From a virus (lineage: Duplodnaviria > Heunggongvirae > Uroviricota > Caudoviricetes), in IMG/VR virus record IMGVR_UViG_3300042885_000900: DNA of 64,000 nt; one strand, 5' to 3'. The notes beneath the pieces were generated by a model. The model saw only the letters and a list, made by a program, of their open reading frames with translations. It was not told where the DNA came from and did no database searches. The first letter of the stretch is position 1. Each line of letters begins with the position of its first letter. Shown here one piece after another: positions 34,918 to 43,205 of the stretch. A program made the translations under genes and the position numbers.

Positions 34918-35529
34918 ATGACAAACGAAAATAGTTTAATGGAAAAATTAATGGTGTCTAAAAAAATGATAGACATTCATAACCAAACACCAAGAGGGGG
35001 ATTACCTTCTATGAATTCATATAATTCACCTGAAGTAGAATCATACGATGCTCCACAAGCAAAGTATTCATTACCTCAAGAGTTTTTACAAGAAAATTCA
35101 ACAACAAATGAACCTTATTTATCGTCAATACCTAAAACACCAACGATGCCACAACCTCTTACAAGTGATAGAGTTATGTCATCTAAATTACCTGACGAAA
35201 TAAAACGATTAATGATAGAACACCCAATTAACCAACCAAGTTCTATGGGTGGTGGTTCAGTTTTATCTGATGAATTAGTTGAAAAAGCGTCAAAATTAAT
35301 GAATTTAAAAGGTAATCAACAACCAACCCAAGTTGTTAAAGAACAATCATCTCAACCAAATTTTAATAACAAACAATTAAAGGAAATGTTAAAAGAAGTT
35401 GTTGAGGAAGTTTTATTAGAAAATGGTGTGATTGCCGAATCAACACAAAAATCAAACGAACTCTTCTCTTTTAAAGTTGGAAAACATGTTTTTGAAGGTA
35501 AGGTAACCAAGATTAAAAAATTATCTTAA
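34918..35529 (+). CDS. Hypothetical protein
   Basis: Operonic ORF followed by a terminator. Confidence 0.65.
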   Translation: MTNENSLMEKLMVSKKMIDIHNQTPRGGLPSMNSYNSPEVESYDAPQAKYSLPQEFLQENSTTNEPYLSSIPKTPTMPQPLTSDRVMSSKLPDEIKRLMIEHPINQPSSMGGGSVLSDELVEKASKLMNLKGNQQPTQVVKEQSSQPNFNNKQLKEMLKEVVEEVLLENGVIAESTQKSNELFSFKVGKHVFEGKVTKIKKLS

Positions 35530-35549
35530 CTTTATTTACTCTCAAGATT

Positions 35550-35580
35550 AACCCTCATCTACCAAGTTGGGGGTTTTTTT
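35550..35580 (+). terminator. Intrinsic terminator
   Basis: aaccctca...tgggggtt stem followed by a T run. Confidence 0.6.
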
Positions 35581-35637
35581 ATTTAAAAAACTTTCCTTTT
35601 GATTAAACCGGTATATTTATATAATAAAGATAAAGTT

Positions 35638-36552
35638 ATGGATATTAAAACTGAAAAAAAAATTATCTCCGAATATAAAAAGGGGAAAAGTAGTTTAGAA
35701 ATTGTTAAAATTGTTGGATTATCAAAACCAACAATTCTTAAAGTACTACACAAACATAATTTAGTTAGAAAAAGAGATAGATGTTCTTCTTTAAATATTA
35801 AAAAAGATGGGGAAAAATACTATATTATTCGTAAATGTCCAAAATGTGGTCAAGACATAAAAACTACATCAAAAGATAGAACAATTGCTTGTCGGAATTA
35901 TTTTAATTCCATAAATAAAAATAGTAATTGTGTTAAATGTATGTCAGAATCTTTTATTGGTGAGGGAAATCATTTTTTTGGTAAAACTCACAAAAAAGAA
36001 AGTTTAGAAAAAATATCCAAAAGTAAAAAAGGTCAAAATTCAGGGGATAAAAATCATATGAAACAAGAAAAATATCGTCAAATGAGTAGAGATATTATGA
36101 GGTCAAATTGGGATAACGGTATATTAGATAGGGGTGTAATTTCTGAGCAAATGAAACAAACTCAACGAAGTGGTAAAATTAAATCAACTATTGTTTCAAA
36201 AAAAGAAAAAGAGATTGTTAAAGAATTGAGAAAATTAGGTTATAAAATAATTCATTCATATCGGGTTGATAGTAAAGTGTGTGATGTATATATCCCATCA
36301 TTAAATTTAATTATAGAGTATTTTGGAGATTATTGGCATTGTAATCCAAAAAAATATGAACCAAATTATTTTAATCAGAAAAAAAATAAATTTGCTTGGG
36401 AATTATGGGATTATGATAAAAAGAAACTTGAATTAATTAAAAGTTATGGTTATAATTTAGAAGTTGTGTGGGAGGGAGACCTAAAACTCAACAATAAATT
36501 AATAGAAATCATAATAGAATCCTATGTCACAAAACTCACTTCAACGCCCTAA
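35638..36552 (+). CDS. Free-standing homing-type endonuclease (HTH, Zn ribbon, NUMOD3, Vsr/DUF559-like PD-(D/E)xK)
   Basis: CPKC; NHFFGKTHKKES; CDVYIPSLNLIIEYFGDYWH. ATG 35638 preferred because it follows TATTTATA at 35614. Confidence 0.75.
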   Translation: MDIKTEKKIISEYKKGKSSLEIVKIVGLSKPTILKVLHKHNLVRKRDRCSSLNIKKDGEKYYIIRKCPKCGQDIKTTSKDRTIACRNYFNSINKNSNCVKCMSESFIGEGNHFFGKTHKKESLEKISKSKKGQNSGDKNHMKQEKYRQMSRDIMRSNWDNGILDRGVISEQMKQTQRSGKIKSTIVSKKEKEIVKELRKLGYKIIHSYRVDSKVCDVYIPSLNLIIEYFGDYWHCNPKKYEPNYFNQKKNKFAWELWDYDKKKLELIKSYGYNLEVVWEGDLKLNNKLIEIIIESYVTKLTSTP

Positions 36553-37783
36553 CGGTCAAGAAAAGATTAGCGTACTCGTACTGCCATCTGACCGCTCGGG
36601 CGTTGGTTAACAAAACGGTAAATTTCGCTCAGTCGACCCCCATGTATTCCTACAAAATCAATATCCCGATGATTTTCATGTGGATATTGATTACGACCCA
36701 AAGATAGATGATATTAATTATTGGAAAAAATATCAGATAATTCACGCACATAGAACTATTGGTAATAACTACGATGTGTCGGCACAAATAATTAAAGGGT
36801 TAAAAGAATTAGGGATTATTGTTATTGTTGATATTGATGATTATTGGTTACCAACAGTAGACCACCCAATCCATAGTATTATTGTAAAACATAAAATCCA
36901 CGAAAAAATAGTTGCAAATTTAAAAGAAGCCAGTTATGTTACAACAACAACTGATTTATTTGCAAACGAAATTCGTAAGCTTAATAAAAATGTACTAGTT
37001 TTACCAAACGCTATAAATCCAAAAGAGGGTCAATTTAATCAACCAACACCACCATCAGAAAAAATTAGAGTCGGATGGCTTGGAGGTAGTTCTCACATTG
37101 AGGATTTAAATTTGTTGGGGAATTTTGTTCAAAAAAATCAAGACATAAATGATAAATTACAATATGTTATTTGTGGTTTTGATATTAGAGGTACCGTAAC
37201 GGAAATGAATCCACAAACAGGTGAAGAAAGAAAAAGAGATATATTACCTCACGAAACTGTTTGGACTAAATATGAAGATATTTTCACTAACAAGTATAAA
37301 ACCATAGATGAGAACTATAAAAAACATTTATTAGAGTTCAAAGAAAGAGAATTTTTATCAACAAGTGATTTACCATATGTTAGAGTTTGGACAAAACCTG
37401 TTACAACTTACGCTATGAATTATTCAAAATTTGATATATCTTTGGCACCAATTAAAAATCATATATTCAATAGGATGAAATCTCAATTAAAGGTGATTGA
37501 GGCTGGGTTTTATAAAAAAGCGTTAATTGCTTCAGAAATCGGACCTTACACCATTGATTTAAAACATTGTTTGAAAAATGGTAATTTTACAGATGGTAAC
37601 GCAATTTTAATACCCGAGAATAGAAATCATAGTGATTGGTCTAAATCAATTAAAAAATTGGTTCAAAACCCTGAAATGATTACTGAATTAGGCGAGAGAT
37701 TATTTGAAACTGTTAAAGACAAATATGATTTAAAAAATGTGACCGTTACAAGAGCAGAATTTTACAAATCTTTAATTAAATAA
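36524..37783 (+). CDS. GT-B glycosyltransferase with an in-frame TAA at 36608 (candidate 12-nt translational bypass, or pseudogene)
   Basis: ATG 36524 is in frame with ORF 36680..37783: MSQ...ISVLVLPSDRSGVG*QNGKFRSVDPH...; body has DIDDYW, GWLGGSSH and FNRMKSQLKVIEAG. Confidence 0.7.
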
Positions 37784-37786
37784 AAA

Positions 37787-38488
37787 ATGATAAACATACC
37801 TTTAACCAAAATATTGTTTCTTGATATTGAAACAGTTGGTGGATGTAAAAACTATACCGAGTGTAAAGTTAACAATCCTAATGTGGCAAAACAATTTGAA
37901 AAATATTTTGATTGGTTTCAAAAAAGATTTCCGGAAGATGTTGGTCGGTCATTTGACTATGTCTTTGAAAAACGAGCGGCATTAGTTCCCGAGTTTGCAA
38001 AAATTGTTTGTGTTAGTGTTGCTTTCGTTATGGATAATGGAGATATTAAAAAACAATCATTCTCCGGAGATGATGAAAAAAAATTACTAAAAGATTGCCA
38101 AACATTACTTAATCGTTGTGGTAAATTAGATTTTTATCTATGTGGACATAATCTTAAAAATTTTGACATCCCAATGTTGGCAAAAAGAATGATAATTAAC
38201 GGATTAAAACCATCCTCAATACTACCGTCTTACAATACAAAACCGTGGGAGATTAAAGCCATTGACACCAAAGAAATTTGGCAATACGGAGCTTACACCG
38301 CAATTGGTTCATTGGACTTAATGTGTTCTTGTATGGATGTTCCATCACCAAAGGAAGGTGATGTTACTGGAGATAAAGTTCACGACGCGTATTGGAATAA
38401 AAATATGTTATCAGAAATCACTGCTTATTGTGAGCGTGATGTGTTAGTATTAATTGATGTAATAAAAAAATTAAAAGAATTAGAATAA
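37787..38488 (+). CDS. DEDD 3'-5' exonuclease (PolB-exonuclease-like)
   Basis: FLDIET, GHN..NFDIP and YCERDV motifs. Confidence 0.85.
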   Translation: MINIPLTKILFLDIETVGGCKNYTECKVNNPNVAKQFEKYFDWFQKRFPEDVGRSFDYVFEKRAALVPEFAKIVCVSVAFVMDNGDIKKQSFSGDDEKKLLKDCQTLLNRCGKLDFYLCGHNLKNFDIPMLAKRMIINGLKPSSILPSYNTKPWEIKAIDTKEIWQYGAYTAIGSLDLMCSCMDVPSPKEGDVTGDKVHDAYWNKNMLSEITAYCERDVLVLIDVIKKLKELE

Positions 38489-39084
38489 TGGAATATAATA
38501 ATTTAGATTTTTTAGAGGAAAAGGCTAAAGAATTAAGACAAAGATTAGAGGGTGATTTTGAAGATTTAGATATGACCGAAATGATGAATGAATTGGGTGT
38601 TGATATTAAAGATTTAGAGGATAAAATGTTAAATCATAGAACTAAATTACCTTTACAATTTAATAAATTACATCCCGATGCCGTAACACCTAAATACAAT
38701 TACGAAGGTGATTCGGGATTTGATTTACATTCTATTGATGAGATAATTATACCCCCATTTGGAAGAGCTTTAGTCCCAACAGGATTATCCTTTGACATTA
38801 AAGATGGTTATGAAATTCAAGTTAGAACCAAAAGTGGGTTAGCCATTAATCAGGGTCTTATGATATTAAATTCTCCCGGAACAGTAGATTCCTCATACAC
38901 AGGAGAAATAAAAGGAATTATTTTTAACACTAACCCTTTTGAGTTTACAATACCTAAAGGTATGAAAATAGGACAAGCTGTTCTATGTCCTGTTGTAAAT
39001 GGGGGGTGGGTTGACTTAATTGAGGTTAACAAAATAAACGAAAAAGATAGAGGTGAGAATGGATTTGGAAGTACAGGAATATAA
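38488..39084 (+). CDS. dut: Trimeric dUTPase with an acidic N-terminal extension
   Basis: GFDL, RTKSG, GTVDSSYTGEI and RGENGFGSTG motifs. Confidence 0.95.
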   Translation: MEYNNLDFLEEKAKELRQRLEGDFEDLDMTEMMNELGVDIKDLEDKMLNHRTKLPLQFNKLHPDAVTPKYNYEGDSGFDLHSIDEIIIPPFGRALVPTGLSFDIKDGYEIQVRTKSGLAINQGLMILNSPGTVDSSYTGEIKGIIFNTNPFEFTIPKGMKIGQAVLCPVVNGGWVDLIEVNKINEKDRGENGFGSTGI

Positions 39085-42461: not shown

Positions 42462-43205
42462 ATGATGGCTGAACAACGAAAAAAAAAACCAACCACCACC
42501 CCTATCCCTGAACCAACAGGTAAACCGGTAAGTAAAAAAGAGTTAATTGGGCAAATAATTAAGAGAAAAACTAAAGAAAAGTTTTTAACTTTAAATCAAA
42601 AAAAGTATTACGACACCTTAATTGAAAGTGAGATTACTGTTTGTTCCGGTCCCGCCGGAACAGGCAAAAGTTACATCTCAATGAAAGCCGCTATTGATTT
42701 ATTATCCGACCCCGAAACACCATATGAAAAGATTATGATTGTTCGTCCTGCGGTTGAAAGTAGTTCATCTACGTTAGGGAGTCTTCCCGGTGATTTACGA
42801 GAAAAAATGGGACCATATGTTTATTCATCACTATCGTTATTACATAAAATAATCGGTAAAGAAACTACAGAGAAATTGGAACAGTCGGGTGTTTTGGAAA
42901 TAATGTCTTTATCATTTCTTAGAGGGTTTAACGCCGACAATATGATTTTAATTTTAGAAGAAAGTCAAAATTCTACACCGTCTGAAATGAAAATGTTGTT
43001 AACAAGGATTGGGTTTAACGCTAAATTTTTCATAAGTGGAGATATTGAACAATCAGACAAATTTAAAAAAAAGGAGTTATCGGGTTTATACGACGCAATC
43101 AAAAGATTATCCGATGTTAAAAATATTGGGATATTTGAATTTAATAATGATGATGTCGTTAGAAACCCTATTATTAAAATAATCTTACAAAGATATGAGG
43201 ATTAA
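42462..43205 (+). CDS. phoH: PhoH-family ATPase
   Basis: GPAGTGKS, RPAVE, LPGD, LRG, EESQN, GD..QSD and VRNP motifs. Confidence 0.92.
   Translation: MMAEQRKKKPTTTPIPEPTGKPVSKKELIGQIIKRKTKEKFLTLNQKKYYDTLIESEITVCSGPAGTGKSYISMKAAIDLLSDPETPYEKIMIVRPAVESSSSTLGSLPGDLREKMGPYVYSSLSLLHKIIGKETTEKLEQSGVLEIMSLSFLRGFNADNMILILEESQNSTPSEMKMLLTRIGFNAKFFISGDIEQSDKFKKKELSGLYDAIKRLSDVKNIGIFEFNNDDVVRNPIIKIILQRYED

Follow-up and report, generated by a model that had tools for sequence, protein, structure and literature searches.

The locus examined here raises the question of how a glycosyltransferase (GT) gene can be expressed when a stop codon stands in its reading frame shortly after the start. In the window (the whole 64,000-nt stretch of DNA that was analysed), the GT frame runs from ATG 36524 through 28 codons to GGT 36605-07, meets TAA 36608-10 followed by CAA and AAC, and continues from GGT 36617-19 to 37786 in the same frame; ORF finders report the gene as 36680-37783 only. 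The interrupted start abuts the gene for a free-standing homing endonuclease (HEG), and the geometry given in a preliminary description of this DNA was confirmed: the HEG ORF (35638-36552) overlaps the GT start by 29 nt, its stop codon (TAA 36550-52) lies in a hairpin, as the 5' side of its internal loop, and the sequence aacggt occurs both at 36551-56 and at 36614-19, with accg at 36591-94. From the comparison of related alleles presented below, we consider it likely that this stretch is the right end of a homing-endonuclease cassette placed between the promoter region of the GT and its body, and that the cassette carries its own first 28 GT codons together with a hairpin-driven ribosome hop. 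The arrangement (Table 1) fits a single mobile cassette, composed of the HEG, the recoded GT start and the gap, in an uncultured lake jumbo phage.

Table 1. Positions of the cassette, its parts and the interrupted GT gene in the window.
Feature	Position	Strand	Description
Mobile cassette	35583-36616	+	Promoter-proximal leader, HEG, recoded GT 5' segment and coding gap
HEG, free-standing homing endonuclease (304 aa)	35638-36552	+	N-terminal HTH, Zn finger, NUMOD3 and C-terminal Vsr/EDxHD-type nuclease
Cassette-borne GT 5' segment	36524-36607	+	28 codons, including a 10-codon N-terminal extension; recoded first strand and Gly loop codons
5' stem-loop of the proposed hop	36541-36606	+	Outer helix 36541-49/36598-36606; second helix 36553-58/36589-94; weaker apical pairs
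Coding gap	36608-36616	+	Stop TAA 36608-10 and CAAAAC; putatively untranslated, G-free
Landing codon GGT	36617-36619	+	Matches take-off GGT 12 nt upstream; decoding predicted to resume at AAA 36620
Probable co-conversion tract	36617-36652	+	7 differences from the near-identical HEG-free L001-L003 cluster here
Main GT reading frame	36617-37786	+	GT-B fold, GT4-like glycosyltransferase; first in-frame start codon only at GTG 36680

The two proteins encoded at the junction can be assigned to known families. For the HEG, a TTG at 35599 was dropped as the start in favour of ATG 35638, the start in homologues. Its NUMOD3 motif matches Pfam at 6.8e-6, its profile matches 1i3j, the DNA-binding domain of I-TevI, at 3e-4 and has a weak match to Vsr, and its AF2 model (pLDDT 76) has the catalytic domain of I-Bth0305I as best Foldseek match (3r3p; TMt 0.70, prob 1.00, but E 6e-3), together with Vsr (1vsr). 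The residues C215 D216 ... E227 ... G230 D231 Y W H234 C N P are unchanged across 14 HEG homologues, and the model places the nuclease domain in a known homing-endonuclease family, with D216, E227, D231 and H234 kept. As in I-Bth0305I and the Vsr-like (EDxHD) homing endonucleases (PDB 3r3p), the C-terminal nuclease fold is alike and the protein is modular and free-standing, with separate DNA-binding modules; unlike them, the HEG joins HTH, Zn finger and NUMOD3 (I-TevI-like) modules, and its cleavage activity is putative. The family was first noticed in 'fractured genes' (PMC2677866). A megablast search of positions 35000-38500 against GenBank phages returned no match, and the best protein relative among these phages comes from a 735-kb uncultured phage (34.5%). 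The GT matches PHROG 7162 (glycosyltransferase) at 2.7e-45, and the ORF as called has no Pfam match. An AF2 model of the uninterrupted homologue L001 (pTM 0.81) has GlgM, PglA, MshA, BshA and PimA as its best structural matches, and puts the junction in the strand 1/Gly loop/helix 1 region of the GT-B fold, a position that may explain why extra residues are avoided there.

The limits of the cassette are defined by alleles that are free of HEG. When the window is aligned by blastn with L001/L003, whose flanks are 93-94% identical, homology stops at 35582 and restarts exactly at 36617, and the intervening cassette stands in for 110 nt of the HEG-free allele that comprise the promoter and the first 18 codons. 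In HEG-free alleles the GT starts 10 codons later and uses AT-rich codons, which the cassette has recoded (for example, Lys to Arg CGN). The GT protein of the window is 98% identical to that of HEG-free L001-L003, and its cassette is nearest to those of L014 and L010. Four of the seven differences in the 35 nt after landing are common to the cassette donors L014/L031, and past ~36652 the window again follows L001-L003. The recoded 84-nt GT 5' segment moves with the HEG: the hop state can be mapped on the HEG tree with only 3 changes but requires 14 on the GT tree, while the cassette state requires 12-14 changes on the GT tree and is present sporadically, at one site, among close relatives. Co-occurrence was also examined in 80 loci gathered via the GT alone, in which an HEG or a remnant accompanied 9/9 interrupted loci and 0/67 HEG-free loci were interrupted (Fisher p = 3e-9), a set that does not contain the HEG-free interrupted alleles L081/L082/L091, found later via a DNA-pattern scan. 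The tree changes and the co-occurrence fit the earlier proposal, in which the insert and the recoded codons go with the nuclease and bypassing rescues the gene.

To describe the interruption itself we used 27 distinct interrupted alleles, including that of the window (WIN), all of them interrupted at one Gly|Lys(Tyr) junction. In 27/27 the codon immediately after take-off is a stop (TAA, TGA or TAG), and the remainder of the gap is without G in all alleles but L146 (CG). Hop lengths are 5 nt (three alleles), 6 nt (13), 7 nt (one), 8 nt (two), 9 nt (one), 11 nt (five) and 12 nt (two), and 11 of the 27 gaps are frame-breaking. Gap length switches between 11 and 12 nt even within one cassette lineage (WIN, L010, L014 and L031), in which the 87-nt 5' segment is 95-97% identical and the sister cassettes L014 and L031 have the 11-nt gap. 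The flanking codons are matched, the landing codon being the same as that of take-off in 12 alleles, a U/C-wobble synonym in 10, GGA after GGT in three and a near-match in two (AGC to GGC in L137 and AGC to AGA in L146). [quoted passage not shown] A Shine-Dalgarno-like element ~6 nt before the landing codon is absent from the gaps, which are A/C/T-rich (CAAAAC, CCAACA, ATCAA, CTAAA and others) and contain neither GAG nor GGA. Also absent is a take-off stem-loop whose 5' strand would hold the take-off codon; such a structure cannot form because the gaps are too short and G-free; the take-off codon lies instead at the 3' end of the upstream hairpin.

This hairpin is the most stable local fold of the window, ranking first among 12,786 sliding 70-nt segments (-26.3 kcal/mol, as compared to a mean of -7.9 with sd 3.9), well outside chance expectation, and its GC content is 51% versus 30%, although a wider 141-nt fold gives z = -1.75 only. 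The HEG stop lies opposite 36595-97 in the internal loop, and the outer helix takes in the first two bases of the take-off GGT. The hairpin is present in 26/26 interrupted alleles that were folded (-24 to -36.5 kcal/mol), whereas 41 uninterrupted alleles gave -2.8 to -12.2 kcal/mol; the 27th interrupted allele, L146, outside the folded set, is a weak match to the hairpin model (E 0.018). Covariation was read from a pair table anchored on the take-off codon, plus a covariance-model alignment: the outer helices are 92% paired, 6/13 pairs have changes on both sides, and compensatory cells number 33 versus 9.8 +/- 2.6 in shuffles. These statistics, along with slid controls, back the two outer helices. 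MAFFT with RNAalifold on 20 raw 5' segments recovered 4 pairs only, because different cassette lineages have their 5' arms in different register, and was replaced. The 3' strand always stops at or within the take-off codon, and where that codon begins with A (L107, L137) its partner becomes T. The N-terminal extension of the GT shows conservation (P-x-N-G-R-E-K-I-R...), but its codons also make up the 5' strand of the hairpin, so that protein constraint, such as a nascent-peptide signal in the exit tunnel would impose, and RNA constraint on the extension are inseparable. Five alleles in which the HEG has been deleted, frameshifted or lost altogether (L031, L147 and L081/L082/L091) retain the hairpin and the gap, and where the gap is lost the hairpin is lost too, though the HEG remains (L123/L124, L142 and the short-type HEG clade); the hairpin thus appears to belong to the interruption and not to the endonuclease. 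Hop length and helix length show no relation by eye. The other very stable folds of the window lie inside ordinary stop-free ORFs (57241, 42616, 1636, 17161 and 49906) or are intergenic (43256), and none presents a second hop site. A scan for promoters and terminators gave 18 hits versus 14.2 expected, which is chance and therefore uninformative on a separate GT promoter, and found no terminator.

Both sides of the gap are under purifying selection. Among 22 of the interrupted alleles, the 17 codons that precede take-off have a dN/dS of 0.126 and the 22 codons that start at landing one of 0.060 (pS 0.62-0.73), and for the whole GT it is 0.06-0.21 between interrupted alleles versus 0.10 for an uninterrupted pair, the allele pairs behind these values being phylogenetically non-independent. 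The HEG-less clade L081/L082/L091, which has one common 11-nt gap, gives a GT dN/dS of 0.075-0.093 at pS 0.52-0.70. The GT 5' segment is far better conserved than the body of the GT, and recent lateral spread, not long maintenance, could therefore account for some of the apparent selection. The downstream GT ORF is intact in 19/19 interrupted alleles whose locus covers it (counting L068), and the exact window allele occurs in at least 14 lake DNA runs, dated 2016 to 2024. An RNA-library contig runs through HEG, hairpin, gap and GT without an indel; a 254-nt low-depth contig from the RNA library of run X16, which ends at 36611, was left out as evidence. Taken together, stop-led gaps between matched codons, the breaking of frame by many of these gaps, and purifying selection on both flanks and on the whole GT argue for a short ribosomal hop.

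The same data bear on other explanations of the interrupted frame. The GT could be broken, either as a young pseudogene or as a truncated protein that starts at GTG 36680 and is devoid of the first strand and Gly loop, as the ORF finders would have it, and the GT need not be essential. We nevertheless regard this as very unlikely, as the codons with low dN/dS include precisely those from landing to GTG 36680 as well as those before take-off, the GTG is not conserved as a start (ATT, ATA or GTT in other alleles), and the ORF remains intact, evolves at a whole-gene dN/dS equal to that of uninterrupted alleles and has persisted over the years of sampling. Termination followed by a restart just downstream, with a released 28-aa peptide and the remaining piece assembling non-covalently, has a parallel in the split phage enzymes held by added tails that are known around MobA/MobE insertions (bioRxiv 10.1101/2022.08.31.505936), yet it is highly improbable at this site: from the stop to the conserved KFRS, the GT frame of every allele is free of ATG, GTG and TTG, and re-initiation leaves unexplained the matched flanking codons and their joint switch to Ser codons. 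Since the 12-nt gap of the window is in frame, its TAA could also be decoded through readthrough, by a suppressor tRNA or under a variant genetic code, with four extra residues. This explanation is barely conceivable in view of the frame-breaking gaps, which include those of the sister cassettes L014 and L031, and of the use of all three stop codons; moreover, TAA is the ordinary stop of neighbouring genes, and there is no tRNA gene in the window.

Two further explanations concern the hairpin. The preliminary description had proposed that ribosomes terminating on the HEG inside the hairpin open or remodel it and so couple GT translation, or bypassing, to HEG translation. Every intact HEG ORF does overlap the GT ATG (inside the KKY[D/E] codons) and stop at the hairpin or within it, 14-68 nt past the GT start, and therefore HEG-translating ribosomes must melt at least the outer helix; HEG and GT also lie together on one RNA-library contig. 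As a general mechanism, however, coupling is unsupported and we judge it quite unlikely, because the stop takes six placements (14, 17, 29, 38, 47 or 68 nt past the GT ATG, by allele) that fall before the 5' arm, in the internal loop, just past the 5' strand of the second helix, in the apical region or in the 3' arm, and the internal-loop placement is confined to the WIN/L010/L014/L031 cassette lineage. In addition, hairpin and gap outlast loss of the HEG, with the GT still under purifying selection, and the GT start codon, at least 17 nt upstream of the hairpin, is not sequestered. The alternative aacggt/accg pairing suggested in the same description proved to be a chance 4-bp match unique to the window allele. 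The overlap of the HEG's 3' end with the extended GT start is all that brings this ORF into the hairpin; by this comparison, the exact site of the HEG stop has no conserved role, and its location in the hairpin appears incidental. Alternatively, the hairpin could serve the HEG or the transcript, as an mRNA 3' stabiliser, a processing site, an attenuator of GT/HEG expression or a DNA-level signal, and be tied to the gap by co-inheritance alone. Phage homing endonucleases are often hairpin-regulated, and hairpin, gap and long-type HEG are largely co-inherited, the 3 changes on the HEG tree therefore providing few independent contrasts. This role is unlikely, though, as the hairpin survives where the HEG was lost (three independent events) and is gone where the gap was lost (two or three independent events), its 3' strand is fixed to the take-off codon with a covarying partner, and no T-run follows it.

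In the ribosomal hop that we favour, the recoded codons and the extension would fold into a GC-rich hairpin of ~65 nt, its 3' strand extending into the take-off codon; this codon, for Gly, would be followed by a stop codon, a few non-coding bases and a second, matched Gly codon. A ribosome at GGU with UAA in the A site would pause, the peptidyl-tRNA-Gly would release its codon, the hairpin would re-form on the mRNA exiting the ribosome and pull the message forward, and decoding would restart at AAA to yield a normal 415-aa GT. Pairing of ribosome-exiting mRNA has been proposed as the driver of gene 60 bypassing (bioRxiv 10.1101/2024.12.09.627546). A point against the hairpin as driver is that its 3' strand would be inside the ribosome at take-off, such that the full outer helix needs ~12 nt moved out, more than a 5-6-nt hop supplies. 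Hopping in the original synthetic stop-hop work was reportedly inefficient, at about 1%. By analogy to T4 mobA/gene 60, in which the bypass insert guards against MobA (bioRxiv 10.1101/2022.08.31.505936), the gap and recoded codons probably leave the nuclease's own target disrupted, and carriers would thereby be shielded during homing. Eleven HEG-bearing alleles are uninterrupted; therefore, the insert is not the sole way to live with the nuclease, and immunity needs no gap.

To our knowledge, published natural programmed bypassing is essentially that of T4 gene 60 and its homologues and of the yeast mitochondrial byps. As T4 mobA/gene 60 is summarised in the accounts available to us (Bonocora et al. 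2011, via Manning & Atkins, bioRxiv 10.1101/2022.08.31.505936), a free-standing homing endonuclease there, too, travels with the rebuilt 5' end of a neighbouring essential-looking gene, this end has an N-terminal extension and a non-coding gap in a conserved Gly codon region (Gly take-off, stop and matched landing), the gap outlasts loss of the endonuclease, and the insertions are repeated and recent. As set against the same accounts, the nuclease described here is Vsr/EDxHD-like and not MobA-HNH, the target is a GT4-like glycosyltransferase and not the topoisomerase II large-subunit gene, the host gene is unsplit, and the gap is 5-12 nt and not 50, with neither a take-off stem-loop nor a Shine-Dalgarno-like element in the gap. 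Also different is the RNA element that is conserved and co-varies: in our alleles it is the 5' hairpin, whereas the 5' stem-loop is described as the non-conserved part in the gene 60 family. Overall, the comparison points to the cassette being a miniature relative of the T4 mobA/gene 60 cassette. The site further resembles the synthetic E. coli 'stop-hops' as outlined by Atkins et al. (2016, PMC5009743), in which a stop is flanked by matched codons and 9 nt are decoded as one amino acid. This exact form is found in 13 of our alleles (e.g. GGT TAA GGA and GGC TGA GGT), and +5 hops occur too; in contrast to the synthetic constructs as outlined there, this site occurs naturally, is conserved, comes linked with a large hairpin upstream and spans up to 12 nt. 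The 2016 review of recoding gives no natural in-frame stop-hop as known and calls shorter bypass counterparts "long presumed" (PMC5009743). Like the cassette, the byps of Magnusiomyces capitatus mitochondria (27-55-nt inserts) are, in the descriptions consulted (PMC5009743; 10.1101/2022.08.31.505936), short mobile coding inserts neutralised by bypassing, with a slow-to-decode A-site codon. Unlike the cassette, they are described there as GC-cluster-like, present in many genes, dependent on peculiar mitochondrial translation, and accompanied by neither an endonuclease nor a defined upstream hairpin.

A broader reading, to which we would give an even chance, is that these alleles are a natural series of minimal hops, tuned by evolution, that span 5-12 nt across a stop and have the re-forming exit hairpin as their sole dedicated cis-signal, and that this series moves from phage to phage as a Vsr-like homing endonuclease's means of immunity. 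If this reading is true, the series would be the first natural stop-hop and would provide direct natural evidence for the model in which pairing of the exiting mRNA is the driver, a point of continuing debate in the case of T4 gene 60. The cassette would also offer a far simpler bypass signal in dozens of natural variants that differ in gap length, codon pair and hairpin sequence, making the role of mRNA refolding at the ribosome exit directly testable with small reporters. For annotation, such a hop would mean that gene callers systematically truncate such genes; the GT of the window, called from GTG 36680, is missing the first strand and Gly loop. More generally, homing endonucleases may repeatedly exploit recoding to enter indispensable codons.

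The source of the window is an uncultured freshwater jumbo phage, most closely related to IMG/VR contigs of 308-322 kb, and its DNA is AT-rich (30.5% GC). The coordinates reported in the preliminary description were all correct when the ORF ends, the overlap, the TAA and the hairpin were re-checked in the window. The downstream gene encodes a GT-B, GT4-like glycosyltransferase (GT); it matches PHROG 7162 (2.7e-45), and a model of an uninterrupted homologue, L001 (pTM 0.81), has GlgM, PglA, MshA, BshA and PimA as its best matches. The GT family is very abundant, with >7,260 homologues, the best 120 of which are all uninterrupted and 405-406 aa long. The upstream ORF is predicted to be a modular free-standing homing endonuclease, as it contains NUMOD3 (Pfam) and a profile built from 14 homologues matches 1i3j, the I-TevI DNA-binding domain, at E 3e-4, with weak hits to the gamma-delta resolvase HTH and Vsr. 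The nearest structure to its AF2 model (pLDDT 76) is 3r3p, the catalytic domain of I-Bth0305I (TMt 0.70), with Vsr also matched, and residues D216, E227, D231 and H234 are invariant. The promoter-like site listed below lies ~70 nt 5' of the GT ATG, and the promoter scan overall was at chance level in this AT-rich DNA.

Positions of the genes, gap and structural elements in the window
Feature	Position	Details
Promoter-like site	36428-36456	TTGAAT, 17-nt spacer, TATAAT; 10/12 matches; within endonuclease 3' region
Endonuclease ORF	ATG 35638 to TAA 36550-52	304 aa; start set by homologues
GT frame, 5' part	ATG 36524 to GGT 36605-07	28 codons, then TAA 36608-10
Endonuclease ORF/GT frame overlap		29 nt
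Hairpin	36541-36606	outer helix 36541-49/36598-36606; second helix 36553-58/36589-94
Gap and landing codon	TAA 36608-10, CAA AAC, GGT 36617-19	in frame with 5' part
GT frame after landing GGT	end 37786	388 further codons; frame unchanged
GC-rich perfect hairpin	42630-42660	TGTTCCGG...CCGGAACA; Walker-A loop codons (SGPAGTGKS) of PhoH-like ORF

Homologous loci were gathered by three routes: by way of the GT, by a DNA pattern, and by way of the endonuclease, sought among viral and metagenome contigs. In most relatives the GT begins with 18 uninterrupted, AT-rich codons and has a non-coding promoter region upstream. The 27 distinct interrupted alleles share one common codon junction, which in the uninterrupted protein falls after Gly18 and before Lys19, where strand 1 and the Gly loop end and helix 1 starts. 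In all of them a stop codon (TAA, TGA or TAG) lies directly 3' of the take-off codon, and the hop to the landing codon would span 5 nt (3 alleles), 6 nt (13), 7 nt (1), 8 nt (2), 9 nt (1), 11 nt (5) or 12 nt (2), with the gap breaking the frame in 11 of the 27. The landing codon is the same as that at take-off in 12 alleles, a U/C-wobble synonym in 10 and changed from GGT to GGA in 3; only two have a mere near match (L137, AGC to GGC; L146, AGC to AGA). Where the GT carries Ser for Gly at the junction, both codons specify Ser (L107, AGC/AGC; L138, AGT/AGC). Gap length varies even within one cassette lineage whose 87-nt 5' segments are 95-97% identical, being 12 nt in the window and L010 and 11 nt in L014 and L031.

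The two near-match alleles (L137:1080-1180 and L146:423-520) are related and belong to a divergent (YYRS) GT subfamily, in which the take-off AGC is followed by TGA and the landing codon is GGC 7 nt downstream or AGA 8 nt downstream, respectively; the explanation is either tolerance of two-out-of-three re-pairing or decay of these copies. A further single sequence, L068 (1250-1360), has at the same junction GGT GCT TAA, a strong CCCCCAC...GTGGGGG hairpin, an A-rich tail and GGT AAA, such that take-off and landing are separated by a frame-breaking 44 nt. It retains the usual 5' hairpin upstream, a 43-aa endonuclease remnant and an intact 387-aa downstream ORF, and may be a long bypass resembling that of gene 60, or else an allele in decay.

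The GT reading frame is maintained on both sides of the gap. Read from landing onwards, the ORF reaches its full length in 19 of the 19 interrupted alleles in which the gene is covered (L068 counted), and in 22 interrupted alleles dN/dS is 0.126 over the 17 codons 5' of take-off (pS 0.62) and 0.060 over 22 codons starting with the landing codon (pS 0.73). Whole-GT dN/dS is 0.06-0.21 for interrupted pairs and 0.10 for one uninterrupted pair, these pairwise values being mutually non-independent. Recent spread may account in part for how strongly the 5' segment is conserved. From the stop to the conserved post-landing stretch the GT frame contains no ATG, GTG or TTG, and the GTG at 36680 is not a conserved start codon. 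As judged from sequence, the strongest case for a live GT despite the gap is the L081/L082/L091 clade, in which the endonuclease is absent, the intergenic region is homologous but diverged, one frame-breaking 11-nt gap is shared and GT dN/dS is 0.075-0.093 (pS 0.52-0.70). The exact window allele occurs in no fewer than 14 DNA runs on lake water, dated 2016-2024. A 1,226-nt contig from a metatranscriptome library (run X15) spans 35600-36778 with no indel, and therefore no gap removal was seen there, DNA carry-over and rare variants being possible. This library is labelled 'marine metagenome' (2025); the contig is ~99% identical to the window stretch, with 0 differences in 36524-36620, 8 across the endonuclease portion and several within the GT.

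The most economical reading of these alleles is that the gap would be crossed by a short programmed ribosomal hop. In the proposed mechanism, the ribosome would pause when GGU occupies the P site and the stop codon the A site, the peptidyl-tRNA-Gly would leave its codon, the hairpin would re-form stepwise on the mRNA exiting the ribosome, and the tRNA would re-pair 5-12 nt downstream, at the matched codon that comes next. The geometry is uncertain, as much of the hairpin 3' strand would be within the ribosome at take-off. The proposed hop fits the definition and precedents given for stop-hops and bypassing (PMC5009743), and agrees with the idea that pairing of the exiting mRNA acts as a driver in T4 gene 60 (bioRxiv 10.1101/2024.12.09.627546). 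Unlike gene 60, the cassette is missing a take-off stem-loop and an internal Shine-Dalgarno element, and its 5' hairpin is the conserved element, whereas in the gene 60 family this hairpin is the non-conserved part (bioRxiv 10.1101/2022.08.31.505936).

The hairpin is the most stable 70-nt fold in the window (-26.3 kcal/mol vs -7.9 ± 3.9, rank 1 of 12,786), and its segment has a GC content of 51%. The same two- or three-helix hairpin is present in all 26 interrupted alleles folded (-24 to -36.5 kcal/mol); the 27th, L146, lay outside the folded set and matches the hairpin model weakly (E 0.018). Uninterrupted alleles (n=41) fold at -2.8 to -12.2, including L123 and L124, the two that keep an N-terminal extension, and L142, the one from the divergent subfamily. 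With the take-off codon as anchor, the pairs show covariation: the first take-off base forms C-G in 13 alleles, U-G in 4 and U-A in 1 (codon AGC), position -4 is G-C, C-G or U-A, and position -7 takes six pair types. In a covariance-model alignment of 24 distinct sequences, which was fitted to the model and so is biased towards structure, the two outer helices are 92% paired with 6 of 13 pairs changed on both sides, and compensatory cells number 33 as compared to 9.8 ± 2.6 after shuffling (0/500 reach 33) and at most 18 in slid controls; pairing is weaker in the apical helices (68-69%). An N-terminal extension present only in cassette alleles codes for the 5' strand, and the 3' strand draws on codons of the conserved strand and loop that have been recoded (e.g. 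Lys AAA to Arg CGN). The hairpin in the PhoH-like ORF is also among the window's most stable folds, with no stop and no gap there.

The preliminary description held that the endonuclease stop is woven into the hairpin, so that terminating ribosomes could remodel it and couple the two genes. In the window the stop does form the 5' half of the internal loop, because the endonuclease tail overlaps the extended GT start, but this placing is confined to one cassette lineage. Depending on the allele the stop is 14, 17, 29, 38, 47 or 68 nt 3' of the GT ATG, and thus falls before, in or beyond the hairpin 5' arm. The alternative pairing once suggested between accg and the landing-site aacggt is absent from every other allele. 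Three independent losses or inactivations of the endonuclease are seen, namely an internal in-frame deletion (L031), frameshift and truncation (L147) and complete absence (L081/L082/L091), and hairpin and gap were kept each time. Conversely, the gap was lost two to three times with the endonuclease kept (L142, L123/L124 and a short-type clade with a 48-aa deletion), and the hairpin is gone every time. It follows that hairpin and gap go together, and these sequence patterns argue that the hairpin belongs to the proposed hop and not to endonuclease termination. L123 (2387-2480) and L124 (2393-2480) have a long-type endonuclease and the GT extension, with stop, gap and hairpin absent; they fold at -10.5 and -12.2 kcal/mol, respectively, their 3'-arm codons (GACCGTAC...) persist, and the 5' arm is decayed and AT-rich. 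They look like cases of precise gap loss followed by hairpin decay.

The cassette bears marks of mobility. Loci L001 and L003, which have no endonuclease, are 93-94% identical to the window in DNA and 98% in GT protein; homology ends at 35582 and restarts exactly at the landing codon (36617), so that 1,034 nt stand in place of 110 nt. The 35 nt after landing contain 7 differences from L001-L003, 4 of them common to the L014/L031 cassettes, beyond which the window agrees with L001-L003; this pattern looks like a co-conversion tract. Interrupted alleles are scattered on the GT tree (14 changes, at least 10 forced by well-supported branches), and on the endonuclease tree the hop state changes only 3 times. 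The co-occurrence of insert and endonuclease, put forward as a check in the preliminary description, was borne out: among 80 loci found via the GT alone, all 9 that are interrupted have an endonuclease or remnant, 4 have an endonuclease and no gap, and 67 have neither (Fisher p = 3e-9). One endonuclease clade (L022, L046, L047, L133 and L135) lacks the 48-aa stretch that separates the NUMOD3 module from the nuclease domain; the adjoining GT is always uninterrupted and without the extension, and in L022 and L047 its junction Gly is replaced by Ser (TCG). Target spacing, or the means of immunity, may differ in this short-type clade. By analogy with MobA, the gap and recoded codons probably shield carriers from their own nuclease, and since 11 endonuclease-bearing alleles are without a gap, solutions other than the gap exist.
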